From: Atractiella rhizophila
Lineage: Eukaryota
Reading direction: 5' to 3'
DNA length: 64,000 nucleotides
NCBI GenBank assembly: GCA_021432655.1
Contig: MU271187.1
Span: 62,001-126,000, forward strand
The translations under genes and the position numbers were made by a program. The notes under the pieces were generated by a model that searched no databases, had not been told where the DNA came from, and was given only the letters and a program-made list of their open reading frames with translations. Of this stretch, positions 19,129 to 64,000 are shown one piece after another (position 1 is the first letter of the stretch; each line of letters opens with the position of its first letter).

Positions 19129-22100
19129 ATGCTCCCGACTCCAGACGTGAATAATGGCTCAAGGAGACGTCCCCGCGTGGAAACTCACACCACCACAACG
19201 ACTCATGCTCTCCCCTTTGATCCACTTCCAACCGCCTCAACTTCAATCTCTCTTCCAATGCCTCCAAATGAATCGTCAGCAGACTACTCCGCACTTCACC
19301 TCGCGCCACCAACTGTACGACGCGTCGTTACTACTACAACAACCACCACGCTCACATTCCCACCGCTTCTCATACCACGACCCAAAAGTCCACAACATGT
19401 CGAGCCGCTTGACAAGAAGAAGTACCCGCTTTCTCAAGCTGAGACGCCTTGGAATTTGAGGAGATTTAGAATGGAACAACTTGATGCCGATGGAAGTGAA
19501 GGAGGGACGAGAGGCCTAGTCTACGATCGCGTTGTGCCTAGTCTCCCTTCTGCATTAACTTCAGCGAACGATTTCCCTACCCAACCTCCATCACGAATTA
19601 GATCGCGAGATGAAGCAGAGGTCGTCTTGCCTACTCCTGATGTCTCTTCAGCAAACCTCCCTGCTTTTCGCCTACCTACTTCCCTTTCCCAAGAATCGAC
19701 CAGCGTCAATAGGAATCGACGATCCAGCTCCGCCGTGCCAGCCGTGGTGCGCCGAAGAAAACGGCAAAATTCCAACACCCAGCTTTCAGATGGTCCTCCT
19801 CCGCGCAAGCGACAGCGACAGAGCTCGCCTATCCAACTTCCTGACCCCCACGCCTCTGGGATATCAATCGGAGCAGGACCACGGGGCGGTTCAACCGAGC
19901 TCATCCTCCCTAGCCCGAAGATGTCTCCCCCTTCACCTGTGGAGACTAGTTATGACGATGACGGAGAGGACGAAGCAGAAACAAAAGGCAACTCAAGTCG
20001 GCAGCTCAGTCTTCCTCAGATGGACTCAGGGTTCTTTGAAGAAGGTTTCTCTCGGTATTTTGAGCAATCGAAGGGAAGTGGACTCCAACTGTCCCCCGAT
20101 GGCGCTCTCTCTCTGAGACCTGAACATGCCGCGGGATTACAAGCGATGATGTCTTTGCCCTCTCTCGTGAACAGCTTTTCCACTCTAGCTCCACAAATGC
20201 AGACCTACGTCCTTTTCTCTCTTCTCAAACGGTCACCAGTTTCCGTCCTCCAGAACCTGCATGCCATCATCACCCCTGCTCTCCGCCGCGACTTTCTAAC
20301 CGATCTCCCCCCGGAACTGGCTGTCCTGGTGCTCTCCCATCTGGATGCCAACAGCCTCTGTCGAGCTGCGCAGGTGTCGAAGACGTGGGCCAAGATGATT
20401 GATGGCGAATGGAGAGTCTGGAGGGACCGACTGAGGGCTGATGGATTGTGGCAGGGTCTGGGAGACGAAGAGGCAGAGGTGAATGATGAAGGCTCGGGAC
20501 TTGGAGGTGGGAACGAAAGGAAGAAGAAGAGGGCGGATAAAGAATTCTTGAGGATGTGGTTTTCGGGTATTTGGGATGATATACCAGGGGACGAAAGCGA
20601 GGTTCGGTCTCTCTATATACTTTAAGCTAAGTGCTGATGTACTTTTTTGACCAGTTCGGCGACGAGGACAGGGTGGCACGGGCGAAGAAAGTCGACTATC
20701 TGCTTGCTCGCAGATCCAACGAGCGCAAATGTGAGCTTATAAAGCGGATCGCTAACGCTTCGAAACGACCCCTCCCGCAATTCAACATCCACTACGTTCA
20801 TCCCTATAAGCTTCTCTACCGACGGCGTTTCGTTTCTAGAAGAAACTGGATGGATCGTGAGCCGGGAAGGATGGGATTTCAGGGCCATGCCATCAACGTT
20901 ATCACCTGTCTACAATTCGATGAACATCGGATTGTTTCTGCTTCCGATGATCATAATATCAACGTCTACGATACCAAGACCGGAGAACTCAGCAAATCTC
21001 TCGTCGGTCACGAAGGCGGAGTCTGGGCACTCGAATACATTGGTAACACTTTGGTTTCTGGTTCAACGGATCGGACGGTGCGAGTGTGGAATCTTGAAAC
21101 GGAGAAGAACACACATGTTTTTCTGGGCCACACATCAACTGTTCGTTGTCTTCAGATCGTTCGACCGGTCAATGTTCAGCATGACCCCAACGGTCCACCT
21201 GTGTGGGAACCTCCATATCCTATCATTGTCACAGGCTCGAGGGACTATACCCTCCGGATGTGGAAACTACCCGGTATCAACGATGACTGGTACATCCCTG
21301 ACATCCCAGATAGTCCAAACGCGGAGAATGTGCACTTCGAAGAGAACCCATTCCATATACGCCTCCTCAAAGGCCATCATCACGCCGTGCGAGCGCTGGC
21401 AGCTAAAGGACGAACCCTCGTTTCTGGCAGCTACGATTACGATTGTCGAGTCTGGGATATAATGACAGGAGAGTGTATTCGAGTGCTGAAAGGCCACACC
21501 CAAAAGGTTTACTCTATCGTCTTGGACGACGAGGCTAAGATGTGTATGTCCGGAAGCATGGATGGCACTGTTAGGGTCTGGGACATTGATACCGGAGAGG
21601 TGGCGCACATTTTGGAAGGGCATTCGTCCCTCGTCGGACTTCTTGGCCTCTCCAAACATCTCCTCGTTTCTGCTGCTGCCGACTCAACGCTTCGGCTCTG
21701 GCGACCCCACTCTGGGCAACACCTCCAGACCTTGGCTGCTCACTCTGGCGCTATAACTTGCTTCAAGCACGACGATATGAAAGTTGTGTCTGGCAGTGAC
21801 GGCGTGCTCAAATTGTGGGACATAAAAGGAGGGAGGGAGCCGAAGGATCTCCTTACGAATCTTGCGGGGGTATGGCAGGTAGGATTCGACGACCGATTTT
21901 GCGTCGCTGCAGTGCAACGGAATGGGAGGAGCGAGTTCGAGATTCTTGATTTCGGGAAGGAGATCGACGAAATGTACGAGGATGAGAAGTTTGAGGAGGA
22001 ACCAGATCCTTTCGAGTTCGTGGGGAAAGACGAACCTGCTAGGATAGCGTGGAAGGATGACGCCGATAGGATGAACTTAGCTGAGAAGAGGAGGAGGAGG

Positions 22101-22421
22101 AGGATAAGCTCGGGTGACAATTTCGAGCTGGATTGGATGTCGGCAGAGGGTGGGAAAGGCAGTCAGACCCTCCTGAGGAGGATGGAAATGCTGTCGAACG
22201 ATATCGAAATGTGGAGGAGAGGTGGTCCCTTACATGGCGAAGGCGACGAAGAAGAAAGGGAAATTAAGGAGGAGGAGGATGAATTCGACGCTGATAATCC
22301 TCCGATCAAAGAGGAAGAACCAGAAGGATTCGAAGAGAACCACGAAGAAGACGATGACATGTATGTCATCAAGGAAGAGGAGGATTATGGTGATGAAGAC
22401 GAGTTTTATGATGAAGTATAG
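19129..22421 (+). CDS. CDC4: F-box/WD40 SCF substrate receptor Cdc4/Fbw7
   Basis: D-domain plus F-box RRDFLTDLPPELAVLVLSHLD; WD40 repeats VITCLQFD, GHEGGVWALEY, GHTSTVRCL, GHSSLVGLL. Intron 20602-20654. Confidence 0.92.
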
Positions 22422-24836: not shown

Positions 24837-25653
24837 CGCAGCAGAGCCCAATCTAACTGAATTGTAATAATCTGGCTGCTGGGACACGGGCGGAAACTAT
24901 GATCGGTGGTCTCAAAACTACCAGGCCCCTGAACGTCCTGACTCCTGAGCGCCTGAGCTGCGATGACCGACCGAGATGATCGATCCAAAGTATTGATTGA
25001 GCGGACAGGAAGGCAGGATATACTTCAGTGGTTCCGTGAGGTAAGTTCTAATAAGTCTCACTCTTTCAGCTCTTCCGCGGCTACATGACTTTCGGCGTGT
25101 GGCCGTGAGCGGGCGTTCTAAAGGCACCGACGAATGGCATGCAGAAGTGTACCACTAGAAAAGTACTGTGATGCAGTGGATTGTTCTATTATGGAAAGCG
25201 GCATTCCTGCTATCTCATCAGAGATTTCGGATAAACACTGAAGAATAGTTTTGGTGTCTGAGATCTCGTTCGGTTTCCCAAGGGTTTGCTGAATCCGAAG
25301 GTTTTTTAATGCCTTTTAGTGTAATTACTTCTGATCTGACATTGTTTAAACAATGTATTGCTTTGTTAGTATTCCCACTACACTTAGGTGGGCCATACTT
25401 ACTTGCAACTCCTGGGTGAAATCTCTTTCGTATTTATCGACAGAATCCTGCATTTGGACATTTTCCCCCTCCAGTAATTCAGTCTTGTCACCTTTCCTTT
25501 GCAAAAGACAGTACCCACCAAGTCTCCTCGAGTTTATGACAACCTCACATCGCATGTGTATTCACTCACTCTTTCCATACAGTCAGGAGCGCTTCGCAGT
25601 GTGGCCAATCCATTCAACATTCAAAGACTTGAACACCCTAACGAAGGAACAGA

Positions 25654-27387
25654 ATGGAGAACGGAGCTTCGACAGTGATGTCATCCATGACTAGCAAAAC
25701 CATTGTCGAGTTCGAGAACCTCTTTCCGCTAGAAATTTTGTGCGCCATATTCGAATATTTTGATCCTCAGAACCTTTCCGAATGGGTTCCGCTGCTATTG
25801 GTCTGCCGCCGTTGGTATCACGTTGTCCTCAGGGACTTTTTTCTGAGCTCCCTCTCCTTACCTGACGACTTGTTTTCCCTCCGTTACGAGTACAGCACAG
25901 CAAAGGTCACAGGTGTTCTCTCCCGACTACGTTGCCACGACGACTTACGGTCTAGAGTACACACTTTGAAGCTCACCTTTATGTGGTCTTACTTCTGCAG
26001 AGACGATCCTCGAGTGGCAGTGCAGGATATTTTGGAACTGATCCGGCTTGAAGTGCGAACATGTTATCTCTCCGAATTCCATAGCGAAGTTCCTATCAGC
26101 CTCCCGATTCCGCCACTTCCACAACTGCGTCATTTAGCCATCAGCGCCTTCATGGATCCAGAATTTGACCTGGCTGCCAGATTTCCTGCGCTACAAGCAT
26201 CATCTGCATCATTACGGACATTTTCACTCGATGCAGGTGTACTCCGTTGGCCAGAGGATATCAACTCCCTTCCCAAATTCAGAGAATTGAGGTCCCTATC
26301 CGTGTTTGGAGTAGCCAGCGATCCCAGCTTTGCTTCGCGAACATCAATGTGGAACATCATGCTGCAGCAATCTGCACAATCCCTTCAGTCTCTTTACCTT
26401 GTTTTGGGCCCAAATGAGCATAGCTGGGATGATGCTATCCATCTGATGCCTTTTTTTCAAGAAGGCCTCGAGAATGTTAAACTCAGTCTGACCTTAGGCC
26501 TTCCTCTGCGCCATCTGATTGCGTTACCGCCACTTCCGCGCCTTAGCTTTTTATCTGTCATAAATCATGGCAGGGAACGAATATCTCTCCTCGAGTTGCT
26601 CCCCAACATTATTCAGTCCTCAAAACTTTCCCTCTTATCCATGTCCGGTTTCAGCTTCACGACATCCGACAGCACTAATCTGCCTCAAGCAGTAGCTTTC
26701 CCTCAGCTTACTGCGCTCTGCTCCAAACGGCCAGGTGAAGGCATAATCGAATATTCTACCACCAAGGCTTTGATGGCTCCGTATTCTAACTTGAAGGCAT
26801 TTACGGCATGTTACTGCTTATTCCATTCTTTTGGAAACGAGTCCAAAGGACACAGAGATATGGCACAAATTGTTCATGATCTTGCTAACTCTGAATGTGC
26901 TCCTCGTCTTGACATGGACTTAGAAATTTCGGGCTTGCATCCGGTGCTGTACTCAACAAGGACAACAAACACAAATATGGCCAGGTTTGGGATTTATCTA
27001 GCCGAGTTGTCATCTCTGTTTTCGGATCTTCTCGAATTCCGGAGCGTACTCATCCGTTCTGACAGCAATGGAATCTTCAGCCTCCCCGGCTGCGATATTT
27101 CCTTTAAAGGAAGAGACAATATCAGAGGCTTGAACCTCCGGTGTGAAATTGCATTTGGGGACGAAACCTTACTTGGAGGTGAACCCTTTGGCCGTTATTT
27201 TCCGGCGGCAGAGAGGGATGTCCAGTTCTGGAAAACCAAAGTTGCGGACGTCGTGGAAGCCTTACCTTCACTGCAGACATTTATCCTCGACGTTCTTGAT
27301 GATGATGAGTTTGCGCCACGTATACTTGGAATGCAAGAGTTGAGAAATTCACTAGCTTCAAGAGGAGTTCGATGGTCGGCGTTTTAA
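25654..27387 (+). CDS. Intronless F-box protein with degenerate LRR-like body
   Basis: FPLEILCAIFEYF..LLLVCRRWYHVV F-box followed by LxxLxL repeats (LPQLRHLAI, LRSLSV, LQSLYL) in a 577-aa single ORF. Confidence 0.8.
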   Translation: MENGASTVMSSMTSKTIVEFENLFPLEILCAIFEYFDPQNLSEWVPLLLVCRRWYHVVLRDFFLSSLSLPDDLFSLRYEYSTAKVTGVLSRLRCHDDLRSRVHTLKLTFMWSYFCRDDPRVAVQDILELIRLEVRTCYLSEFHSEVPISLPIPPLPQLRHLAISAFMDPEFDLAARFPALQASSASLRTFSLDAGVLRWPEDINSLPKFRELRSLSVFGVASDPSFASRTSMWNIMLQQSAQSLQSLYLVLGPNEHSWDDAIHLMPFFQEGLENVKLSLTLGLPLRHLIALPPLPRLSFLSVINHGRERISLLELLPNIIQSSKLSLLSMSGFSFTTSDSTNLPQAVAFPQLTALCSKRPGEGIIEYSTTKALMAPYSNLKAFTACYCLFHSFGNESKGHRDMAQIVHDLANSECAPRLDMDLEISGLHPVLYSTRTTNTNMARFGIYLAELSSLFSDLLEFRSVLIRSDSNGIFSLPGCDISFKGRDNIRGLNLRCEIAFGDETLLGGEPFGRYFPAAERDVQFWKTKVADVVEALPSLQTFILDVLDDDEFAPRILGMQELRNSLASRGVRWSAF

Positions 27388-49761: not shown

Positions 49762-52320
49762 ATGTGGTCCTATCTGATCCCCTCCTTGCTCTCTTTCAGC
49801 TCGTGGGTCTCTGCGAACAACACGTCGACCACCAACGTTCTTGGTTACACCATACCTACTCCTGGAGGTGACACCTACTCTGTGAAAGAGCCGCCGCTTA
49901 CCACCAACTGGACCTACTCCCTTGGCACGAATCCGTGGGATCAATATCCTCGACCTCAGCTCAAGAGGTCGGAATGGCAGTCACTCAATGGAATTTGAAG
50001 GCACCGGAACGCGTCTTCCCTTCATGACGTCAAGAATCCGCCTTTCTGGAAGAGGCTCGAGAACGCCGTGATGGTTCCTTCGTGCCTGGAAAGCGGGATC
50101 AGTGGTATGTGTTGGCACCTTCTGTACTATTCTGTCTAATGCGGTTTGGTTTCTCAGGGTTGCAAGGAGAGAACCTTTTCTACTCCTGGCTTTCGACTAG
50201 GTTCAATGTTTCGGACTCCTGGAAAGGACAAAACATCATTCTGAACTTTGGCGCTGTCGACTATGAAGCGACGGTATTCGTCAATGGTAACTATGCTGGT
50301 TTCCATCGTGGCGGTTACTTCCGTTTTGCGCTCGACATCACAGGCTACATCAAATACGAAAGAGAGAATGAGCTGTAAGTTGTTTGATTAGTCTGGCAGC
50401 GCGTGAACTCAGCAACGCTTTCAGCCTGGTTTTTGTACATGACCCGACCGATTCTGGAGACCATGTCATCCCGATTGGAAAGCAGTCACTGCGAGAGTGG
50501 CGAGACGACAGGCAACCGCATCACATCTTCTATCGTCCTTGCTCTGGGATTTGGCAAGAGGTCTTCATCGAGCCAGTTTCCGCTAATTACATTACGCGTC
50601 TCGATCTCGCAGCAAGTATGGACGGGACTCTGAACGCGACCGTGCATACGTCCTGGTCAACCCCAAAACCTGTTCAGATTTCTGTTCACGCAAAAGAGGC
50701 CACTGATGTTATCGCCTCGTTCAACGGGACGACTGACAAGCCCTTCACATTCAGGGTCCAGAACTTTGAGCTTTGGTCGCCTTCGAATCCAAATCTTCAC
50801 AATATCACGGTCACTTTTGGAGATGACGTTGTAACAAGCTACACAGGCTTCAGGACCTTTGCACGAGGAGAAGTTCAAGGTGTAACGAGATCACTGCTGA
50901 ATGGCGAGCCCATTTTCATGTTTGGTACACTGGAGTAAGCCTAATTTGCCTTTTGCTCTCCGCAATTCTCTAACGAAAAATAAAAGCCAGGGGTTCTGGC
51001 CAGATGGCCTTTACCTCCCTCCTAACTACGAAGCCATGGTTTACGACTTGCAAGTTCTAAAGTCATTAGGATTCAACATGCTTCGAAAACACATCAAGGT
51101 CTGCTCCCTACTATCATAGACGGCCGACATGACAGAGAGTAATAGGTGGAGAATGATCTTTTTTACGAAGCTTGCGGTAAGAAATACTGGGTAAAAAAGT
51201 TACAAACTGATAAGGAGCAGATAAAATGGGGATTATTGTCATTCAAGGAAAGTGTTTTCTTTAAGAAGCTGACTATCAATAACTCCTCTGAACAAACAGA
51301 CATGCCCTCTCTTCGACCACTTCAGGAATACACGACTTCCGACTGCGTTACTCACACGTATCTTCCCAACGAGGAGCAACAAAAAGAATTCGACAGACAG
51401 CTCGACCTCTTGGTCGAAACCCACAAGAGCTTCCCTTCCATTGGAGTGTGGATTATTTATAATGAAGGTGAGGCGTTTCTACCTTCCATACATGGAACTA
51501 AGCGATGAATCAGGTTGGGGACAAAACGGGTTTAACAAGCCACCATACCCGGAAATTCGCTTGACAGAGCGAGTTCGTCAACTCGATCCTACTCGCCTCA
51601 TTTCTGCGACTAGTGGATGGTTTGACCACGTAGGTCTCTTTGTCCATTCTGTCAAATATCCTAATATTGTCCAGGATCAATACTGGCCGGCTGGACAATC
51701 CTCCGATTTCAGTGACAACCATCATTACGCTAATCCTCAGTGTGGAACTCCATTTTATTCTACCCAGTCACGTCCCTTCAACCCTTCTCGTATAGGATTT
51801 CAAGGGGAATTTGGGGGAGTAGGCCACAATCTCAGTCTGGCAAACCTGTGGAAGGTTAGTACGACAAGAATCGCGACACTTTGATCAGGGCTGATTATTG
51901 TTGATTCAGGTTCAGAAAGGTCTGCGTCATAAATACCGTTGATGTTAGCTGACAGCAGTTCAATTGTCTAGCAATTAACACGATTAATCAAACATACGAG
52001 TTGGATGCCACGATCGATGCGTGGAATTACCGCGCACATCGACTCCTTGACGAGTTGAGGGAGCAAGTGGATTTGTACTCGTGCGCAGGCGGTATTTGGA
52101 CTCAGACCAGTGTTTGTTTCTGTCGTCTCCCGGGAGAAAATAGGTTAATAATTTGTGATAGGACGTGGAAGGAGAGGTTAACGGGCTGTTGACTTATGAT
52201 AGAAGGATCCTGCGAACCGACATAAACCAGTGGAAAGCGGATATCCAAGCCCTCTATGACACTGCTGCTAACAGAGCAGATGGCGACAGGTTCGCTTCCA
52301 TCCCGGGTCATGAAAGTTGA
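49762..52320 (+). pseudogene. Secreted glycoside hydrolase family 2 gene with an in-frame TGA and a GA splice donor (probable pseudogene)
   Basis: Signal peptide, YPRPQLKR..WQSLNGI*, LNFGAVDYEATVFVNG, GTLDQGFWPDGLY, GFNMLRKHIK, WIIYNEGWGQ, GEFGG and DVEGEVNGLLTYDRR. TGA at 49996-49998; GAAAGT donor at 51248. Confidence 0.75.
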
Positions 52321-53151
52321 AGAAGCTAATGTCCTTCCAGCACATCCACTCGCCGCTTCTTGGCCAAACGTGACAGTTACTATGGCCAACAAGAGAAAAA
52401 CTACGCTCACGACCTTCACAAGCGATGGGCAGAAGAGAAGGCAATCCGCAACTGGGCAGAACCCAATTTCGACGAAGCAGTCGCCATCTAGAAATAGACT
52501 GGCTAGAAAAGTGAGGAATCTTAACATCCTCCTATTCAGTTTACATCTTTTCCAGGTCAACAAAGGCCAACACATTTTAAAGCGACGAAAAGCAATTCTC
52601 GTTGTCATGGATTCGCAAGTATTTACAATCACAATGGTCACGCCACGAAATGATGAAAAAGCGCTCTACTGTACCGCATGATAAATCAAGAATATCTTTT
52701 CTGTAGACCATACAACTGAGAAAGAGGGTTATCAATTCGAACAACCAGGCTGTTGAGTGTTACGATGAGAAGACGAGCATTTGTATGGCGACAATGAAGC
52801 GAAAAGAAAGCAGCGATGGTAGAAAGCGTTTCTACAAAGTCGAAGAAGCTATTGTGACAATCAAAAATCTCCAGGCCAGGAAAGCGTAATACTGCACTGG
52901 CTTAAGAGTAGAGTTCAAAGTTCCAGAAATTTGATTGTACGATGTACACCGCTTTTCTTTCCACTTGTACATACATAAAACAAGTCTCCTATAAACCCAT
53001 GTCCAAACCACGGAAGTCTCTCAATTTGAATTGCCTCAAGGTAAAACCATACTTTAACCTAAAAACTTTGTTATATAAGAGAGCCTGCTAGCTTGAGAAT
53101 CTTGACCCTCCTGTCAGTTCCGACGGTGACGGCAACAAGGAACGCTGTTCC

Positions 53152-54684
53152 ATGCGTACAAAAATATCAAAGCCACCAAAGAAACCAAGGAATCGAGAGA
53201 AAGCGATAGATTTTTGGGACAACGACCATGTTGAAAATACCATCAGCTCCTTGCAGGGTCACCTCGAATGTGAGCAAGCATTTAGTTGGAAGGTATCCTT
53301 GTTTTAAACTTTTCGTGTAACAGTTCACAAGAAATATGCGGCGCTGAACTTGAACCCAGACGACATCGTTCTCTCAGACCTCTGGCGACCGTCTGCTCCT
53401 CGTCAAACCTGTTTCATTGGTAAATTACCTCGCGAACTTTTAGAGCCAATCCTTCGAGCAAGCTTGCCGCGAGTTAGATTTGTTTCCGACATAGAGCACG
53501 GGTTCATTCGTGCTTTCAGTAACATTCGAGGCGTATGTGTCCATTGGGCAATTGCAGCACTTTCCATACTTCGCCATCATTTCCAAATTTTTGACGCGAA
53601 AGGAGACTCTCGATCCCTTCCAAAGTTCGAACATTACTTTCAGTCCGAATACCTTCGCAACATGTCGCTGCAGTATAGCTTGCCGCGTAGTGTACCCTAC
53701 GATGCTCTCATCACGATCTCAAAACGGCCGGTTAATTCTCAGAGTTGGTACACACTTCGAGCGTTCCTTTCTGGTACCTCGAACGCAACTCTGCGTGTTT
53801 CTTCTCTTCCTTGGGACAATTTTCCGATTCACCAGCTCCTCTCTGACCTTGACATGATCAAGTGTCGCCTTGAGCTAGTCGTCAATAGGACTGCGAAGGT
53901 CAAACTCAGTGAATGGCTCAACCTGCCTCTTGAAGCTACGAACATTTGGTTTTGTGACCTCAAAATAGTACAGGAGGGGGATGTAGATGCCTTCATCAAC
54001 TCTCCCACTGTTGGATATGATCTCGGCTTCCTAAACTGCCATATCCAGGATCGACGAGTCATTTCTTCAGCTCTTAGATCCCTCGACTTATCTGCATTCA
54101 GGTTTAGTTCCTTCTCATCCGACTTGAGCGGAGACCTAGACCTTTTGATGAGTTTACGTTTTCCCAAAGACCTGAGATTATTGCAATTGTCTTTTCGGGG
54201 TCATATTTCTGTGGAATTGCACGACGCAAGACTTCCACGTCCACTCGATCTGGTTATCGTATCATGTGCGAAGCTATCAAGGCTGTTCCTGGACGGAGGC
54301 CACGAGAAATCGAACTTCGTAACCCCTGAGTTACTTGCGCACCTACAATCAGTGAGGGAATTGGAGCTGCACTACTGTTGGTTCTCATTTGGGGAAATGG
54401 TCGACTTTGTTGGATCAGTTCACGTCTTTGGCGTTCGCATCATTTCAAAACCCTTTTTTGGGGACTGGGAAGATGTTGACAAGCTAGAAGAACTATCTCG
54501 CATTGATCCCAAGGTAGAATCGCTGACGATTCACAATCAAACACGTTTGCCTCTAGACTGGCGGTACAACGGGCGAACAGAGGGCTGCGACCTGGAAGGC
54601 TTCGAGGGGCCGCGTTTCACGTTTTGGATTGTTCGCGAATTGGATGAAGGTTCTACCAGTCCTTTCTTTTGGGAGAGTCGATGA
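53152..54684 (+). CDS. F-box-like/LRR-like protein with short N-terminal extension
   Basis: TATA-like TATATAA at about 53072, ATG at 53152, and GTGAGC..CAG intron 53270-53323 joining in frame to ORF 53350..54684. F-box-like FIGKLPRELLEPIL..IRGVCVHW. Confidence 0.68.
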
Positions 54685-54830
54685 AGAGAGGTTTAGCTCA
54701 ATGTCTAGTTCAAATTGCCTGGCCTTCTTCTTCCGGCGCTTCATAAGATGCTCCTGATGCTTCTGACCTTGTTGGGACACAAACATATCATATACAATTA
54801 CTTGGCTACTAATAGTCAGCATCATGTCGA

Positions 54831-57012
54831 TCAAATCGACATTCCCCCAAAGTTCTCTCTAGACCTTTCTCTAAAAGCTTTAAACCACCAACTGAAGGCA
54901 AAAACAGCTGCTGAATAAGCGACCAATACCACAGTAGCGACGAACGAATTGACATGAATGGTATGTATCGAAAGATTCACGAGACCAGTCAATAAATTAG
55001 CCTGTACAAATTCTCTCAGCATATCGACATGTTGCATGAAATGAGCAGGAGTGAGCGAGTGACGTACAATTAGGAATACCCATAGCCCATGTAGATTTAT
55101 ACTTTCGAAAAGATTCGGCACGAGCAACGATGTCTCCTCTGTTCCTCTCAGTTTAACCTCGGAGTCCAGAAGGAAAGATTTGACTGCAATTTCGACGAGA
55201 AGGTAGCAAAGGATGAAGCTGACGTTGAATGCTGTTATCCAGAGGACATATGAGACATTCGCCTGCACATAATATATTTTCGTCAATAATCAAGGGACGA
55301 AGTGAGTTCAGGAGGAAAGACATGCCAGTCGTCGAGAAACGTCAATCTCCAACCCATACCGAACAACGGCCAATGCGGCCCACCAAAGTATGGAATATCC
55401 GCTAAGGACGCTGGCGAGTTTCCCCGGCTTTTGACGCAGCGATTTCGTGCCGAGTGAGCGATAGATGAAGTAGGGATCTGGTGGTAGGACATAGATTCCA
55501 GTGGATGTGCCAAGGAGGAAAATGGCCAAGTAGCCTGCAAAGAAACATGATGCCCGCCGTGGGAGATGCTGGGGAAATAAACCTACCAGGGAAGGAGGTG
55601 ATGCCCTCTTTATTCTGCGAGAAGATGTTGGTGCGTTCAGCAAATAAGGCCCATTCTTGGAGCCCCCAGCGCTGGAGGGAGAACTGGTGTACTAATCAAG
55701 GAATCATTGTGAGCAAAAAAGTTGATCGAGGGCAACGCAAAAGAGGTGAAGGCGCACAAGCTGTTGTGAATAGCCCAAGGACGACGTAGTCCACCTTTGA
55801 AGAAAGTGCATCGAAACATACGCCGCAAACGCCGATAGCTCCAAGGGTGAAGAAGAAGTTCCAGTGGACTCCGTACTCGGTCACATGTTCCTGCATGGGA
55901 TCTGGTCAGAAGCGCCAGGATGAAGGAGAGAAAGAAGGATTACCGGATACTCGACTCCTTTCACGGCTAGTACCCGCAGGAGGCCGAGGATGAGGACTGG
56001 GAGAGACTTGAGGAATGATTTTTGGACTGAATGCAGGAATGGACGCGTCTGTCGTGATCGCAAGCGAGGGATGGCGGAGATGATACCTAGTGAGAACACA
56101 AAAGATCCCACTCCGAGATCCATCTACAAGAGCAACGAGTGGCACCGAAGTAAGTTTAGGATGAAAAGGAGGGAAGAGACGACTGACGATGGAGGTTCCC
56201 CAGGTCTCACACTTTGCGAACTCCCTCGGGAAGATCCTAAAGTCGACGGCTAGAATGCAGAGAACAGTCATGATCATCATGTGCGCTCGATAGACTGTGA
56301 TGAATGGTTTCCTGAACAGCTCATGAGGGAGTAGAGGAGACGGGGGGGGCTTGGTTTCTCGAAAGCTGGCATGCGTGGGTGACGTATGCGGGAGGTGGCT
56401 TTGGGGCGTCATGAGGATGCCTATGGACTCTGGAGAGGAGTCGTTCGTCTTCACCACAAAGTGAGACGAGCTGTCACGTTTGTGATGTGACCTTGGCGTG
56501 CCGGGAAGCGATGGCGCGCGGGAGGAAGGAGATTTTGGATTCGAAGAGTAGGCTGAGGCGGAGGAAGAAATAAGAACGATTGCGAGAAACACGAGGGAGA
56601 GGTTGAGGGTGATTGGAAGCGAAGAGAGTGATGTAAGCGCCCCGATTAGGGGTAAAATGAGAAGGGTATATTCGACGAAGAAAGCCTGCCATCCTGTCGC
56701 TTCTTCTGTATCGTTCGACCGTCGCTGTCCATGAGATGGAGTTACGTCTGTTCGAGCTCTCCGTCTCTGAGCACTGAAGGCGATCCAGAGCGCGTAGCTG
56801 GTCTAAACATGCCCCAAACGGACACACCGAGAAACCGTGAGCTTTAAACCTTGATGGTAGCAGAAGCAAAGTGCGGAAAAGCGAAGAAAACAGATGAAAT
56901 GACTGACGAGAGCTGTGAGACAGACGAGATTGATGCTCAACACCGTCCCTCCATTGGTGTTGGACACGAATTCCTCCTTCTCCGACTTGTAATTGATTGC
57001 CTGGCCATCCAT
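54831..57012 (-). CDS. GWT1: GPI inositol acyltransferase Gwt1/PIG-W
   Basis: [79 protein letters not shown] and [12 protein letters not shown]. Confidence 0.95.
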
Positions 57013-57725
57013 CAACTTCTCCTGCAACTTCTCTCGCCGAGAATATGTTGCCACGCCTCAAGTGCTCAGAACGTTGCCAAAACGCTCGCCCAAAAGATAA
57101 TTCCCACACACGTTTTACTTGTCTCGGATCCGAAAAACCCACACAAGGTAACATGGTTAATGTTTCAGCAATTGTTTCAAGTGTCTCCGAAATGCTGATT
57201 TTGGTGAGCATTACAACGGGGATGGATGAGGGACTGTCATGGAAATCATGAGCAAGGAAAATTATGGGGAATCTAGGGATATTTTGGAATGTCAGAGTTT
57301 CAATCCGATTCTATTGTACAACAGCAAAGACAGAAAAAGAACAAGGTAAGTTATGCACAAAATGATTAAGCAATATATAACTAGTCCAGACTAGACAGTC
57401 GAGATAAGGGAGGTAGTAGCATCAAAAGAAACGAATAGAGAAGGGTATCGAACTGATTGTAATTTGTCACATTCATGCTTTGTTGCGATCGCCAAACGAC
57501 ATTGATTTCTGGCTTCTTCAAAAGTCCACGGAGTCCATCTTTGGTAGTCCATTCAAGATTTAAGTCCATCGAACGATGAATGACAAAACTAAAGATAGTC
57601 CAAAGGCCCAAGAACCAATGTCCCTCAACGTCCATCGACATCGTCATATCGTTTTTTTTGACAGAAAGCAGAAAGACATCCCCTTCGTGGGGGAAGGACA
57701 GAGCACATCGTTCCATGAACATTTT

Positions 57726-60700
57726 TCAATCTACACCCATCATCATCCGTCAGGGCGTCGTCGCACTCAGAAACGACAGAAAGAGTAAAACTCACAACCC
57801 TGAGAGGGTCCTCCCACCACATTATTGAACCTCCTCCCGCCCATCTGGACCGGACTATGCCCATAGTCTGCTGGGCTCATCGCTGGTCCTCCACCTCTAG
57901 CGGAAACCGGCGTCCTGGGCGACTTGTGTTGCATATATGGCGGCAGGTTGGTTGACAGCGGCGTTAGCGTCGCTGGCGAATTCGGGTTGAAGGGTGAGGC
58001 AGCGGTGGTGGTGATGATGGGGGAGACGACGCGCTTGTCAAGCTCTTTAGATTCATAGAACGCTAAGTACAACGAAAGAGCAACGTCAAAGAAATGTCAG
58101 AATGAAATGGGAGAGGTAGGGAGCGACGGACCGTAGTCTTGTACCAAGGACGTGTTGGAGTGATATGTTGCAATGATCCTCAGGACTTCGAGACCAGCAT
58201 CGTAAAGCACCTCCTGCGTATCCCTCGAACTCGTGACTGCTTTCTTTTCCGCCGTATTCCTATTCGACGCCACAACAATGGGCGCATCAGCGTCCTGATG
58301 CATTGAAGGAGCAAAAGAAGGAACGCACTCAAGTTTGATATGCCTCAAAGCGCTCAACGGCACATCCTTCACGAACAGCCATTTGACCTTGAACACTCCC
58401 TTCCACTTATCCTGCGCCCACACAGTTGAAGAGGTGTGATAGTCCACCTCCGTCAACATCTGTGCGATCCCGCAAAAGTGTCCAGAACCATTGACAGAAA
58501 AGAAGAGATAGATGGGTCCGTTAGCATTCGACTCCTTGAATGCCCTGTCCAGACGCTTGTTGCCGAGGTCAGTCGAAGCCCAGATCTCGTATTTCAAGCT
58601 CTGCAACCCCCATGATCAATATCTCTCACATTGGATGCGTCAAGGAGAAATGGCAAGACGAACCTTATGCACGTCCTCCTCGGTATAACTCTTGATAACA
58701 AAGAACCTAGCCCTCGGAGGCTTCAGGTCAAAATTCTTCGGATTGTATCCCTTCTCCTCGACCAATTTCTGCACGTCAAAACTCATGGTTCCCCTTCCGA
58801 ATCCGCCGCCTCCTCCACCAGGCGTCATGGCGATCGGTGTAACAGGGGAGTTGGCCACCATTCCCGCTCCTCTTCCCATTCCCATCCCAGCACCATACGG
58901 AGAGTAAGGGCTCTGCAACATGACCGGGGACATCCCTTGAGTGCCGTACGGGCCATTTCGCATCCATGGTGGCTGGACGGGAATGATAGGGGATGGGTTA
59001 GGGAGGATAGGACTGGCAGCAGCGGCAAGGTTGATATTGTTCGAATTAGGGATATTTTGATTCGAATTCGCGTTCTGATTGGCGTTCACGAGGGTGGAAG
59101 GGTTATTGGAAGACGTGGATTGGATGCGGTCTATCATCTCCCTATTCTGTTGGATCTGCCACAAGATCTCTTCCTGCTGTTTCGCCAACACCTGAAACGT
59201 CCTATAAGCTTCCTCGCTCTGTCCTCCTCCATTCGCTCCTCCATTTCCACTCCCTTCCTCCTCCCCCAATCCTAACCCCATACTATTGCTCCTCCCAAGC
59301 ACTCTATCCTTCTGACTCCTCCAAGACCCTCCACCCTGAGCACTGAACAATCCTCCCTCCTCACTCCCAGCACCCGCGCTAACCGGTCCTCTCAACCTAT
59401 GACTATGCCCAATGGGAGGAACATAAGGGGCGGCCGACTGGGGACCCTTAAGAAAAGCGGCACGAGAGCCAGCAGTGACGTCCATAGGAGAAGGGGAAGC
59501 GAGAGCGTTACCGAATCCATTTCCATTCCCGCCATGTCCCTGTCCATGCGGAATTTGCTGCTGCTGTTGTACCATACCGATCAATGCATCCCTATTGGTC
59601 AAGAGCTGCAACTGCGGTCCCTTCCTCGCACTCGTTGGCGTCGTCGCGCTCGTCGGAAGAGTGTTATGCTTCACTTGCTGTCTCGGCCCTGCCGCGGGAC
59701 GGGGGCTCAATCTGCCACCATTAGGAGCGGTGGGAGTGGCTGCGCTGTCGATTGCGCTGTTAGGACCTAAGCCCGGTGGACCGGGAGGAACAGGGGAGGT
59801 GGAGCGATGCGAGTTCTGGGAAGCGCGACGGGAGAGTGAGGCAGCTTCTTCGGGGGTGGGGGACCAAGGGGACCTGATTCCAGAGGGGGAGGGAGGGATC
59901 AACGGTCCGCCTGCACCTCCGGTGTTGTTGGGTCCATGGAAGTTGGTGACGATGCTCAAGCTGGGAGTGGTCCCGCTCCTCTGTCTCTGCATCTGCCCAT
60001 CCTGCGCGCCTCCTCCTCCGACACCGAAGGATTGCTTGGTCGGAGACGCGAGCTCGTCGCTCCTGACCCTCGCATGGGAGGTCGGAGAGGTAGGAGATTC
60101 GTCGTCGATCTGGGCGAGCCGAGACCTGCCTTCGCGCAGGGATTGGTGTCGAGTGATGTTGGACGAGGTCGTAGGCGAAAGAAGGGACGAGACTGCCCCT
60201 CCTGTCGCACGAGAGAGGGAGGAGTGTCGAGTCAGATTCGTTTGGACCGTTATACGAGCTGGAGAGCGCGGAGGAGCGACGGGAGGGGTTGGGAGCGTCG
60301 GCATCGGCGGAGGAGGGGCGATCTGTCCGTCCAACGTACGAAATATCAACTACCGAATCGGAGCACGTTAAAAGAGCATAAGAGGGCATACGGCATTGTT
60401 GGACGGAGAAGGAGCCTCTTCCCTCTTATATTGATAATGAAACCTGCTAGGCAAGCTCGCCTGTCTCTGAAGGTTTGCCTGAGCCGCAGCGAGTTCCCTC
60501 TCGAAACGACCATCGCCTCCATCACCCTCCAATCCGTCATCTCCCTCCAAACTTTCCGGGAACGGACTCTCAACCACGAGCTCCTCCTCCTCACCAACGC
60601 TAGGTGGCGTCCCCACAGCTCCCCATCGACTTCCACCTGGGGAAACGGGATGTGGAGAGTGGTGAGAGGGAGAGGAGAGGCCAAAGAACTTCTGATCTTT

Positions 60701-61005
60701 CGCGCTCAGGTTCTTGGTGAGCCGTTCCCTGTCGTACCTCGCATGGCTTAGGTACGTCCTCGAGGCTGCGTGTGATTCCTGGACAGTGCGGACTGCGAGG
60801 CTGGCGGAGGAGAGGGAGTGCGAGGTGCTGGACCTGGGACGGATATGGGAGGCGGAGGCGGGAGCGGGAGATCGTCGCCTTCTTCTGCGAGTGCGTGGGA
60901 GAGGGCGGAGATGTTGGACAAGGGAGACGGGGCGAGTGCTGCTGCTGGCGGAGCGGGAGAAGCAGACTTTTTCTTGTCCTTTGAAGATGCAAAGATGGAA
61001 AACAT
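57726..61005 (-). CDS. YTH-domain (m6A reader, YTHDF/Pho92-like) protein with long low-complexity N-terminus
   Basis: [64 protein letters not shown] with aromatic-cage Trp residues present. The 5' end needs a frame change near 60770. Confidence 0.88.
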
Positions 61006-61767
61006 ATCTCTTCGAGTTCCTTTTGCCCAGTCTGCTGATGATTCGATGAGTGCGTACTCTGATAAAGTGTGTTTTCCTCCTTGGTATTAGTTCACTGGTT
61101 CTGCTGTTTTCTGCTTTTGCTGGTTCGTGGATCTGATGTATGAGGAGAGACGTCGAGCTGTGCACTTGGAATTGGGGAGGCAGTCACCCTGAACGGTGCA
61201 GGGCTGAAGAGCTGCGCTGGTGGTTGTTGTCGGTCGTTGTGAGGAGGAGAAGGTGTCGGACTTGTCGGAGGAGAACAACGAGCGAGATTTATGACGATCG
61301 TCCAGGGCGTCAATATTCCATCAATTCTTTATCGCTTCGTAGTCGGGTCTTCCTCTGTGTGTTCAAGTCCTAGTCTTACGGGCGAGTTGTGACCGCTCTT
61401 ATTCTTTCTTTTATGGCTGGATGGAATCGGGGCGCACTTCGTTTATGCACTGGCAGTGCTAGGGAGAAGGGAGTCCGGAGTTCAGAAATATGTTGGTCAA
61501 ATATGATGATCTGGGGTGAGAGGATGAATTTCGCTGTGAGTATGCTTCAATGAGGAATTCATGCAGCCTTTTCGAGTATTCGTCTTATTTAAGTGTTCTG
61601 TTCTTCTCCGTTTGTTCATCCAACGACACCGCACCAACATAGCCAAAAGACCCGCGAGTTCTAAGGTCTTTGTATAGTTGGGAAAGAACTTTTCGTGTCA
61701 ATTTCAAGTTCAAGTTAACGTACATCATCGATCCATTATCATGGAAGCAAGAAACACAATTTCCAAC

Positions 61768-63786
61768 TCATTTAGGATTTCCTGGTGCCTCAAACCGATA
61801 CTGCCAGTTCATCTTCTTCGTGTTCCTGTCGAGACCAATCACGAGTTCGACTTCATATTTCTCAGCGAACTCCGTCAGAGGTTGGAGTGCGACTCGATTC
61901 AACTCGTCGCGCATTGCACGCTCCATGCGCCAGTCGATGTGGAGCGGGAAGTTAATCCAAAGACCTCGCAACTTCGGCAGCAGGTACCTCCAGGATTCCA
62001 TGTCCGTCAGAACAGAGAGTAGTTGATAGCTGAAAGGAAGACGGAGATATTCGACGTGTTGAAAGTATAGGAACCCTTCAACGAATGGAAAGACGTCGCT
62101 CAGGACAATTACTGGCGAAATTTGGTCCACAGACTGGGTATGCTCTGGTAGAAGAGAGCTGGCACTGAAAGCGCTAAACTCCGGCGACACCACCAGAGCT
62201 TTGAGAGATGTGAATTGATGCACAAATTTAAGCGTTGCTGCAACATCATTTTCAATCATTAGCCAGCTGGGAATTGACAGATATGTTAAAGTATTCACAG
62301 AGCTTTCGGTAAGTAGTATCATAGGAAAGAGGCTCTGCCAACGAGATTCAGATTGGGGAGGTGTAAGGAGCCGGGACAAGTCGAGTGTTTCTAACTTGAA
62401 CGGCCGGGAAGTATTCGCTGTGGCCTCGAGCACCTGCACGTTACCACACAGCACGAGGTTGGAAAGGTTGGTGCTTTCAAATAAGAATGGAAACGCTTCA
62501 TCGAGGGAGACAGAGTGGCCATTCGACAGAAAGATTAACTCCAGATATTGAGCTTTGGGCAGTGGCGGGAGAGACCACGATTTCGTCGTGCTCATCAAGT
62601 CGGGAGCATCCATTGCGGAGCAAATTGTGATGCCAAAACTGACGAGAGTGTCGGCAAACAAGCGAATGAAAGGGCCGAAATCCGCAGTGTCAAGAATTTC
62701 GTGGGAGAAAGTCACAAAAAGGTTCTTCAGAGATTCGACACTGCCGCAGAAGGATTCAATCCAATGAGCGAATGAATCCCCAACGTATAACGGCCTAACT
62801 TCGAGCTCTCGGAGGGCAGGGAGTGCAATTGGGGGGAGCACGACGTAAGGTATCTTCAGCAGCAGGCGTCCCAAGACAGTGCAGCCACCCAAAGAGTGCA
62901 ACAGCAACTGTGATGTCTCCTTTGCTTCTTTCAGCTCCTCCTTGTCTTGATAGGGCGAATGCAGATGCCTTGAATCGTCAAGCTTCAGAAATATCAGGGA
63001 ACGAGGGAAGGCAAAATCTGGAGGGGGAGCTGCAGGGTAGACATCAGCACCCCACACCAACGTTAGGTGAAGCAAGCTGTCCAGCTTCTGCAGGATCGCA
63101 TATATATGTGGAAATAGTTCGAATGGAATGTACTCAAACTGACAAGTACGAACGAACTTGCCCTGGGAGGGGAATTCAGTTAAAGTCCTGTTGAATGGAA
63201 TATATCTCCACGCTATCTCTTCCCGAATGACAACAATGCTAAATCTCCTGATAGCCACCTCGTTCCAGCGTCGACAAACAAGGTGTACTGGCGTACAATG
63301 GAACAGAGAACTTGCTGCGACATACAAGAAAATCAAACTGAGCAGCTCATCAGGCAATGGTATGTCATTGGAGAGTCGATTGAGGCCTAACTCATCTCCT
63401 TCGTTCGGCAGAGGTTCTGTTGTCTCCTTGTTAATCGGAAAACCAACGTTGCGTAGGTTCTCGTGATGCGGACTGAGCATTCTTTGAATCATTTCAGGAG
63501 TCAAGATCTCCTCCAACGGCTGGTTCCCAATCGAAATTCCGCGAAGAAGATAATAGATCCAAGCAGGAAGGCCATTAATGATGGCAAGAGTAAGCATGTG
63601 ATCGGAAATGTCGACTTTGAAGGACACAAGGTGATCTCGAAGTTGAGACGCACGCTCAAAATACTGATCCAAAGTCTCCATTTTTCTCAGGCGCAAATGA
63701 AAAAAGCCAGTCATAGCCAATGCTAAATCAGCGAGATTCGGTTGCTGTATGGAGTGGACGCCGACGCCAGGATCAAGAGGATCCAT
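61768..63786 (-). CDS. Fusion protein: Ty1/copia Gag capsid-like domain + F-box + LRR-like body
   Basis: Single uninterrupted ORF. Residues ~29-105 (FFHLRLRKMETLDQYFERASQLRDHL..ISDHMLTLAIINGLP..LTPEMIQRML) fit the Retrotran_gag_2/UBN2 pattern. Residues ~143-182 (LPDELLSLIFLY..LVCRRWNEVA) are an F-box. LxxLxL repeats follow. Confidence 0.75.
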   Translation of the reverse strand: MDPLDPGVGVHSIQQPNLADLALAMTGFFHLRLRKMETLDQYFERASQLRDHLVSFKVDISDHMLTLAIINGLPAWIYYLLRGISIGNQPLEEILTPEMIQRMLSPHHENLRNVGFPINKETTEPLPNEGDELGLNRLSNDIPLPDELLSLIFLYVAASSLFHCTPVHLVCRRWNEVAIRRFSIVVIREEIAWRYIPFNRTLTEFPSQGKFVRTCQFEYIPFELFPHIYAILQKLDSLLHLTLVWGADVYPAAPPPDFAFPRSLIFLKLDDSRHLHSPYQDKEELKEAKETSQLLLHSLGGCTVLGRLLLKIPYVVLPPIALPALRELEVRPLYVGDSFAHWIESFCGSVESLKNLFVTFSHEILDTADFGPFIRLFADTLVSFGITICSAMDAPDLMSTTKSWSLPPLPKAQYLELIFLSNGHSVSLDEAFPFLFESTNLSNLVLCGNVQVLEATANTSRPFKLETLDLSRLLTPPQSESRWQSLFPMILLTESSVNTLTYLSIPSWLMIENDVAATLKFVHQFTSLKALVVSPEFSAFSASSLLPEHTQSVDQISPVIVLSDVFPFVEGFLYFQHVEYLRLPFSYQLLSVLTDMESWRYLLPKLRGLWINFPLHIDWRMERAMRDELNRVALQPLTEFAEKYEVELVIGLDRNTKKMNWQYRFEAPGNPK

Positions 63787-64000
63787 CAAAAAACTGGACT
63801 CGAATCAGTCACTTGACATTAATACAAACTCACGACTTAAGCTTATACCTACGTTTAAATAATCACTTAATTTAGGTGATATATTACGAGAAATGAAATC
63901 AGAGGAGGCGGTTTTATCCTCGTTCGTTGTTTTCCCGGAAACATGAGCACGGTGCAAGCTTCGGAAAATTAATGTGCGGAACCTAAAGGCTAAGGAGCGC

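Follow-up and report, generated by a model that had tools for sequence, protein, structure and literature searches.

On the reverse strand of a 64,000-nucleotide stretch of the Atractiella rhizophila genome (positions 62,001 to 126,000 of contig MU271187.1, assembly GCA_021432655.1; hereafter the window), we resolve a gene at 61768–63786 whose 672-residue product, judged from structure models and profile matches, consists of a retrotransposon capsid C-terminal domain (CA-CTD) of the Ty1/copia type, a disordered linker of about 27 residues, an F-box, and a leucine-rich repeat (LRR) solenoid of the FBXL type. Our leading reading, which we hold tentatively, is that the protein is a fungal host receptor of the FBXL type for Skp1-Cul1-F-box (SCF) ubiquitin ligases, in which a domesticated CA-CTD serves as a self-association module. 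The combination of CA-CTD, F-box, and LRR seems not to have been described before: an initial annotation of the window, made from its sequence, had stated that no Gag–F-box system was known, and we likewise found no description of such a fusion in the open-access literature. The nearest item, in a passage of PMC4759884, concerns copia Gag (UBN2) domains fused to plant NLR immune receptors.

The gene lies in a single open frame (61768–63789, reverse strand) that opens at a TTG codon; translation from its first ATG, at 63786, gives 672 residues, with the stop codon at 61768–61770. The coordinates proposed in the initial annotation hold, with residue 28 (FFHLRL...) starting at 63705 and residues 142–181 running from 63363 to 63244. 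The intronless frame that it claimed also stands for the coding part, where contigs of sequencing run X3 are colinear with the window over 61500–63793; one intron of 59 nucleotides (nt) is found in the 5' leader only. The features of the gene are as follows.

61768..63786, (-): coding sequence, 672 residues plus stop, with an intron-free coding part (reading of the frame, X3 contigs)
63445..63738, (-): predicted CA-CTD of the Ty1/copia type, residues 17–114, five to six helices (model, VIA-align, Foldseek, Pfam)
63364..63444, (-): linker, residues 115–141, poorly conserved and predicted to be disordered (model confidence, identity to homologues)
63244..63363, (-): F-box, residues 142–181 (Pfam PF12937)
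61822..63243, (-): predicted LRR solenoid of the FBXL type, residues 182–655 (whole-protein model, Foldseek, ESM Atlas)
63794..63852, (-): intron in the 5' leader, 59 nt, GTAGGT...CAG (X3 contig, record 7)
63853..63922, (-): 5' leader exon, reaching at least 63922, where the same X3 contig ends

The N-terminal capsid domain

In an AlphaFold2 (AF2) model of residues 1–135, built from a three-sequence alignment, we observe six helices (residues 18–29, 39–55, 62–72, 75–82, 91–94, and 97–104), with a mean predicted local distance difference test score (pLDDT) of 67 and values of 82–88 over residues 21–70. When this model is compared exhaustively with 48,161 PDB representatives by VIA-align, which is independent of Foldseek, the first-ranked structure is the Drosophila copia capsid (8vvw_A; Z 11.0, root-mean-square deviation 2.8 Å, 91 aligned residues), matched over chain residues 94–186, which form its CTD. 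The yeast restriction factor Drt2 (9rxy_A, Z 9.6) ranks second, and 8s41_A is also matched (Z 7.7). Of the best 50 rows, 1–28 hold nothing but retroelement capsid CTDs; an unrelated protein is first met in row 29, with a Z of 5.8. Helical bundles can score Z near 13 from a common arrangement alone, and the best Z of 11.0 lies within the range where they may match in this way, which counts against the identification; we nevertheless retain it because the top rows are uniformly capsids and because Pfam agrees.

Foldseek returns no PDB match for the N-terminal model at E ≤0.001; the 40 matches listed are all capsid proteins of retroelements or domesticated relatives of these. The copia capsid 8vvw_A is again the best of them (E 0.021, probability 1.00, template modelling (TM) score by query 0.60), followed by Drt2, Arc, PNMA2, Ty1' CA-CTD, MOAP1, PEG10, and Ty1 p22. 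In the ESM Atlas, which holds its own model of the protein, 7/7 structure rows are clusters of PF14223 (TM by query 0.58–0.64). With the copia capsid and Drt2 at the head of the structure comparison, the Ty1/copia Gag CA-CTD claimed in the initial annotation is borne out, and we conclude from these models that approximately residues 17–114 form a CA-CTD of this type and that the protein lacks both the N-terminal domain of the capsid and the nucleocapsid part.

The sequence evidence rests on a small family. An exhaustive HMMER pass through 1.84 billion representative proteins yields four proteins at E ≤0.001, the query (P0001) included, among them P0002 (673 residues, 34% identity, E 3.5e-75, aligned over 16–613) and P0003 (692 residues, 28% identity, E 4.9e-8, aligned over 16–280); the fourth is P0004, discussed below. 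By Pfam, the whole query matches PF14223 (Retrotran_gag_2) with 14.7 bits (E 0.021; cut-off 27) and its first 129 residues alone with 19.1 bits (E 9.5e-4), also under the cut-off, with residues 22–111 aligning to profile positions 82–167 of 172, a stretch confined to the C-terminal half of the model for copia Gag. Matches below the cut-off are likewise found for P0002 (16.7 bits, E 0.0054, profile positions 88–144) and P0003 (22.6 bits, E 8.2e-5, positions 82–144), and when the N-termini are searched alone, 3/3 family members match the profile at positions 82–144 or 82–167, with a best E of 7.4e-6. The Pfam check foreseen for the Gag segment thus came out in part: the expected family is matched in all three homologues, whereas the gathering score of 27 bits is reached by none of P0001, P0002, and P0003, a second point against the identification. 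Sequence searches of the PDB, with the N-terminus and with a three-sequence profile, give no capsid and only chance-level matches (Nup49, E 0.49; a hibernation factor, E 0.58).

It is conceivable that the N-terminus is not Gag but a generic hairpin, helical or TPR-like, with a fortuitous likeness to PF14223, and such a hairpin would explain why every PF14223 score is under the cut-off, why the PDB sequence searches gave no capsid match, and why a bacterial TPR-repeat protein (P0004) matched residues 20–59 at E 6.9e-8. We regard this as highly improbable: the top 28 structure rows are all capsid CTDs and none of the 50 is a TPR protein, the same stretch of PF14223 is matched by each of the three homologues, and the Atlas and AF2 models are in agreement. 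P0004 itself (1145 residues) was rejected as a relative, the match being a repeat-summed chance match in which residues 20–59 are hit ten times. It contains about 15 near-identical TPR-like repeats (...ETAKQYFERSLQLSEQLL...), the matched part corresponds to helix 2 of the capsid domain, and its case illustrates that repeat proteins can attain E 1e-7 through summed chance matches.

The F-box protein, its transcript, and its family

Within the linker region, pLDDT falls below 50 over residues 107–124, and the alignment to the homologues is gapped, with 21–31% identity. The F-box proposed in the initial annotation is recovered above the Pfam cut-off, with the F-box-like family PF12937 matching residues 144–179 (E 3.8e-6, 27.0 bits versus a cut-off of 24.3) and the motifs LPxELL and VCRRW being invariant across the three homologues; in the model of the free whole protein, this region has a pLDDT below 50. 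The whole-protein model (mean pLDDT 59, with values of 70–90 across much of residues 210–450) alternates strand and helix from about residue 183 to 651. Foldseek finds 84 matches to it at E ≤0.001, and all those listed are solenoid proteins of the LRR type, the best being MAX2-ASK1 (1.8e-6), TIR1-ASK1 (2.3e-5), and FBXL2-SKP1 (3.1e-5), with COI1-ASK1 also among the best. For the whole protein, the Atlas structure rows include F-box/LRR_FBXL15 clusters as well as several fungal clusters. No Pfam LRR family is matched by sequence in the protein; the LRR-like body noticed initially emerges from the whole-model comparison as a solenoid of the FBXL type. The protein is thus an F-box family member by Pfam and, by its predicted fold, one of the FBXL kind. 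It shares the order of F-box followed by LRR solenoid with the FBXL receptors Skp2, FBXL2, TIR1, COI1, and MAX2, and the matched structures were solved with Skp1/ASK1. We know of no capsid domain in the matched FBXL proteins.

Contigs of run X3, whose organism label is coded differently, are mostly 95–99% identical to the window. One of these (record 7, 1181 bases) covers 62681–63793 and then 63855–63922 with one letter between, a join that corresponds to the removal of 63794–63852 (59 nt, GTAGGT...CAG on the gene strand) together with a one-base difference. Contig depth along the stretch shifts threefold (30.6 versus 10.5). The library kind is unrecorded, and we take the run to be RNA-derived because a DNA deletion is unlikely at exact intron boundaries and because the depth changes threefold. 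Once the intron is removed, the main frame is closed by stops immediately before the ATG at 63786, which places the intron in the 5' leader and indicates that the protein starts as read; an upstream coding exon was rejected on the same grounds. The X3 contig continues unbroken through the capsid/F-box junction, and with X3 read as RNA, this spliced contig supplies the transcript across the boundary that the initial annotation asked for. Pieces of 61757–63186 are also covered by contigs of X4, X5, and X7, of which two are root metatranscriptome libraries and one may be an RNA run; none of these contigs lies over the capsid part, a gap that is uninformative at their low depth.

Two further observations concern the ends of the transcript. 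The 5' leader exon contains an upstream open reading frame (63867–63944, reverse strand) of 25 codons that starts at an ATG at 63944 and whose stop precedes the intron; after splicing, it is in the phase of the main frame, and it could be involved in translational regulation. On the 3' side of the stop codon, over 61500–61767, the X3 contig is threefold deeper (30.6) than over most coding contigs (10.5) and carries small insertions relative to the window (G, TGCAA, and G). This stretch may be a long 3' untranslated region or part of an overlapping neighbouring transcript.

Homologues with the same fusion were indeed found: a CTD-only N-terminus followed by an F-box is the layout common to P0001, P0002, and P0003, and residues F28, L39, Y42, L53, S61, D62, A68, G72, L73, and P74 are kept in all three. 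Between P0001 and P0002, identity is 40% in the CA-CTD (47% in its core), 38% in the F-box, and 32% in the LRR body; between P0001 and P0003, the corresponding values are 19%, 38%, and 25%. Among the three, F-box identity is 38–42%. The family amounts to three clusters among the 1.84 billion representatives. A word-indexed protein search with the whole protein, the N-terminus, or the three-sequence alignment returned the query alone, and it is no measure of family size because P0002 and P0003 are missing from its results. A metagenome scan gave 330 pattern matches, of which two were confirmed (L001 and L002) and then rejected as relatives, each matching only the 35-residue F-box; the frame of L001 starts 12 residues before the F-box, and L002 has no ATG-started frame of at least 100 residues covering the match.

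Within the open reading frame (ORF), X3 and the window differ at no fewer than 29 positions; the 29 differences listed, besides which there are 10 more, comprise 13 synonymous and 16 non-synonymous changes. With 3.3 non-synonymous sites per synonymous site, this gives a ratio of non-synonymous to synonymous differences per site (pN/pS) of ~0.37; the capsid part alone holds two of each kind, too few to interpret. Domestication is supported because two distant homologues share the architecture and because the spliced contig crosses the capsid/F-box junction. By sequence comparison, this is a host gene that is old and under constraint, and a one-off neutral insertion, which the initial annotation had named as the outcome that would overturn its proposal, is refuted by the boundary and motif residues kept in distant homologues and by the pN/pS.

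A related account is that copia once inserted at the 5' end of a gene for an F-box protein, and that an in-frame piece of Gag has been tolerated there since, translated but with no function of its own. The tiny size of the family is compatible with such a remnant, as is the fusion of copia Gag domains to further host proteins, plant NLRs among them, for which a role is not shown in the part of PMC4759884 concerned. We consider this account improbable, since the CTD-only boundaries and the motif residues survive between proteins that are 25–33% identical overall and the domain still folds confidently in the model; a neutral piece would be unrecognisable at such divergence. Slightly less probable still is that the CA-CTD acts alone as a lattice poison or Gag sink with no ligase involved, the F-box and LRR being only the carrier gene of a chance insertion. 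The fold match to the copia capsid and Drt2 suits this possibility, and known restriction by CA-CTDs requires no partner domain (as stated in a section of PMC12530519). In all three homologues, however, the F-box (38–42% identity) and the LRR body are conserved along with the CA-CTD, and because of this joint conservation the whole fusion appears to be under selection.

As an observation on diversity at this locus, a 154-base piece of the LRR region (62244–62397) is represented by two X3 contig versions. The first, at depth 4, matches the window letter for letter, while the second (depth 7.5) carries eight differences, four of which alter residues at codons 474–505. Allelic diversity here is locally high, of the kind seen between two nuclei or two haplotypes.

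Possible functions of the capsid domain

Capsid CTDs act as modules of self-association, in Fbw7/Cdc4 the D domain is located directly N-terminal of the F-box, and SCAN is a dimerisation module found at the N-terminus of vertebrate zinc-finger proteins. In the reading that we tentatively favour, the CA-CTD, situated one flexible linker upstream of the F-box, would occupy the place of the D domain and pair two receptor molecules, producing a dimeric SCF ligase in which the F-box would bind Skp1 and the LRR solenoid would select substrates. Pairing would then take place in the cell, and dimerisation would be the trait kept by selection. Precedents come from two sources: the Fbxw7 D domain undergoes homotypic dimerisation that aids ubiquitin conjugation (a passage of PMC4998596, which for the position of the domain gives only the domain order), and SCAN resembles capsid CTDs, its presumed source (a passage of PMC5509000).

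Homodimer prediction for residues 14–116 gives a score of 0.62 versus 0.31 for the best control, a result that may reflect memory of solved CA-CTD dimers. The mark used was attained by 21/30 proteins solved as pairs and by 0/23 solved as single chains. Across the runs, contact agreement is at least 98% and partner pLDDT at least 81, and the predicted interface is symmetric, involving residues 15–29, 56–58, 63–71, and 78–95. An oligomeriser was one of the functions suggested for the domain initially, and it fits somewhat better because the CA-CTD lies directly N-terminal of the F-box, because the LRR body is conserved, and because of this homodimer prediction, with its possible element of memory.

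Several observations weigh against a conserved dimeriser. Among eukaryotic proteins without an older solved relative, only one of seven attained the homodimer mark. The columns of the predicted interface show less conservation than the remaining columns of the domain (mean BLOSUM62 score of 0.65 over 35 columns versus 1.47 over 57), which is not what a conserved homodimer interface would predict, although a surface usually varies more than a core. The CA-CTD of P0003 is also less similar to that of P0001 (19% identity) than is its LRR body (25%). To our knowledge, receptors of the FBXL type are not known to need a D-like domain. Finally, the same surface of the CA-CTD may bind the Gag of a resident copia element, and pairing of receptors and targeting of Gag are not mutually exclusive.

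This second function, the one put first in the initial annotation, corresponds to an SCF receptor directed against retrotransposons: the CA-CTD would heterodimerise with Gag from resident copia elements, in the way that p22/p18 and Drt2 engage Ty1, and Skp1-Cul1, brought in by the F-box, would ubiquitinate Gag or assembling particles. We judge it somewhat unlikely, if a serious competitor to receptor pairing. Cast as intrinsic immunity, and with the same reserve, the CA-CTD of this fungal factor would enter Gag lattices and the F-box would recruit Skp1-Cul1 to destroy them, with the LRR possibly providing a second contact with the particle. The fold is the same as that of CA-CTD restriction factors (Drt2 at Z 9.6 and Ty1 p22 among the Foldseek matches listed), the F-box is intact, and a CA-CTD type of pairing is predicted, with the proviso that this prediction may recall solved dimers. 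Within the domain, conservation is lower at the predicted interface, a pattern that an arms race would produce. Drt2 is, according to a passage of PMC10951436, a fungal domestication of a Ty1-family CA-CTD for restriction.

The specificity of such factors points the other way. In the relevant part of PMC12530519, p18 and Drt2 are described as highly specific to their own subfamily, with three interface residues switching the target; CA-CTDs that are 19–40% identical within the family would thus need continuous co-evolution to maintain subfamily-specific targeting. Further, targeting of Gag gives no role to the conserved LRR body of ~470 residues, which is the usual substrate binder, and the capsid domain, being N-terminal of the F-box, is not on the usual substrate side. 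There is also no copia element within the window. The initial annotation had reported no zinc knuckle, protease, integrase, or reverse transcriptase, and this is upheld: none of these has a Pfam match within the 672-residue protein, and retroelement families are absent by Pfam from the window's remaining 136 stop-to-stop ORFs of 110 residues or more. For long terminal repeats, the check covers 50000–64000, where no repeats of at least 40 bases are found. No intact Ty1/copia element thus surrounds the Gag part within the window, which ends 214 bases upstream of the ATG.

Domesticated capsids are known as restriction factors (p22, Drt2, and Fv1), as capsid-forming genes (Arc, PEG10, and PNMA), and as the SCAN module. 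A capsid binder joined to an E3 ligase is known from TRIM5alpha and TRIMCyp, and Fv1, which is derived from Gag, targets incoming capsids. These last three are comparable to the present protein only if it targets Gag; all three are vertebrate proteins, TRIM5alpha and TRIMCyp having a RING ligase and binding capsids via SPRY or cyclophilin, and Fv1 lacking a ligase part. The closest fungal counterparts are Drt2 and Ty1 p22/p18 of S. cerevisiae, which likewise consist of a CA-CTD of the Ty1/copia family without the capsid N-terminal domain or pol, Drt2 being expressed from a host locus as here. In the portions of PMC10951436 and PMC12530519 that concern them, p22/p18 and Drt2 are free-standing, near-identical to their target element, and poison the capsid lattice. 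Unlike these, the present CA-CTD is fused to an F-box and LRR and is old (19–40% identity within the family). The protein is therefore not a member of the p22/Drt2 class, being fused, old, and without a known cognate element, and it might still work alike.

SCAN is similar in that a retroelement capsid CTD has been reused as the N-terminal protein–protein module of a host family (from a passage of PMC5509000), whereas its origin is Ty3/gypsy and it is found in vertebrates on DNA-binding proteins; the domain described here is of the Ty1/copia type, fungal, and placed on a ubiquitin-ligase adaptor. No SCAN entries are among the Foldseek or VIA-align matches listed. The D domain of Fbw7/Cdc4 is likewise a short helical module that could pair two SCF receptors (a passage of PMC4998596), but it is a three-helix parallel dimer unrelated to capsids and is carried by WD40 receptors, whereas here a capsid CTD is carried by an LRR receptor. 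By this comparison, the module is neither a SCAN nor a D domain, even though receptor pairing, which we put forward with caution, has it working alike.

A Ty1/copia CA-CTD wired to an SCF adaptor would be a new reuse of the capsid. If it pairs receptors, a fungus would have arrived independently at the SCAN solution, and dimeric SCF ligases would have a new route of construction. If it targets Gag, the logic of Fv1 and Drt2 (Gag against Gag) and that of TRIM5alpha (a capsid binder with an E3 ligase) would be united in one chain, and the protein would both represent a new class among the factors that restrict retrotransposons and offer a natural model for degrading capsids in a targeted way. 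Either function is open to direct testing by ordinary biochemistry and a retromobility assay.

The surrounding window

Going by gene content, the window looks like an ordinary fungal chromosome. It includes genes for mitochondrial ribosomal Mrp51, HYPK-UBA, PARG, Sgf11, CLP1, LSM, Utp12, GH2, GWT1, and YTH, together with WD40 genes and another two F-box ORFs that have no Gag part, whereas a gene for Skp1 is not among them; tblastn of the 672-residue protein against the window finds itself and one F-box only. The first of the other F-box loci (19129–22421, forward strand) encodes an F-box (PF12937, E 2e-12, residues 391–434 of its first ORF) followed by a WD40 propeller ORF, and has the appearance of a receptor gene of the Cdc4/Fbw7 type that is interrupted by an intron. 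The second (25642–27387, forward strand) is an intron-free ORF of 581 residues with its F-box at residues 29–66 and no Gag-like N-terminus, which resembles the gene studied here in the F-box only.

Closer to the gene, the stretch at 58600–61200 has a G+C content of 0.54. Several long ORFs, the longest of 569 residues, overlap there across the two strands; they have no Pfam match, and their translations are rich in R, S, P, and G. This composition suggests either that the sequence is of low complexity or that one gene is real and the other frames are its shadows. The G+C-rich stretch is adjoined by a YTH-domain ORF at 58100–58615 on the reverse strand.

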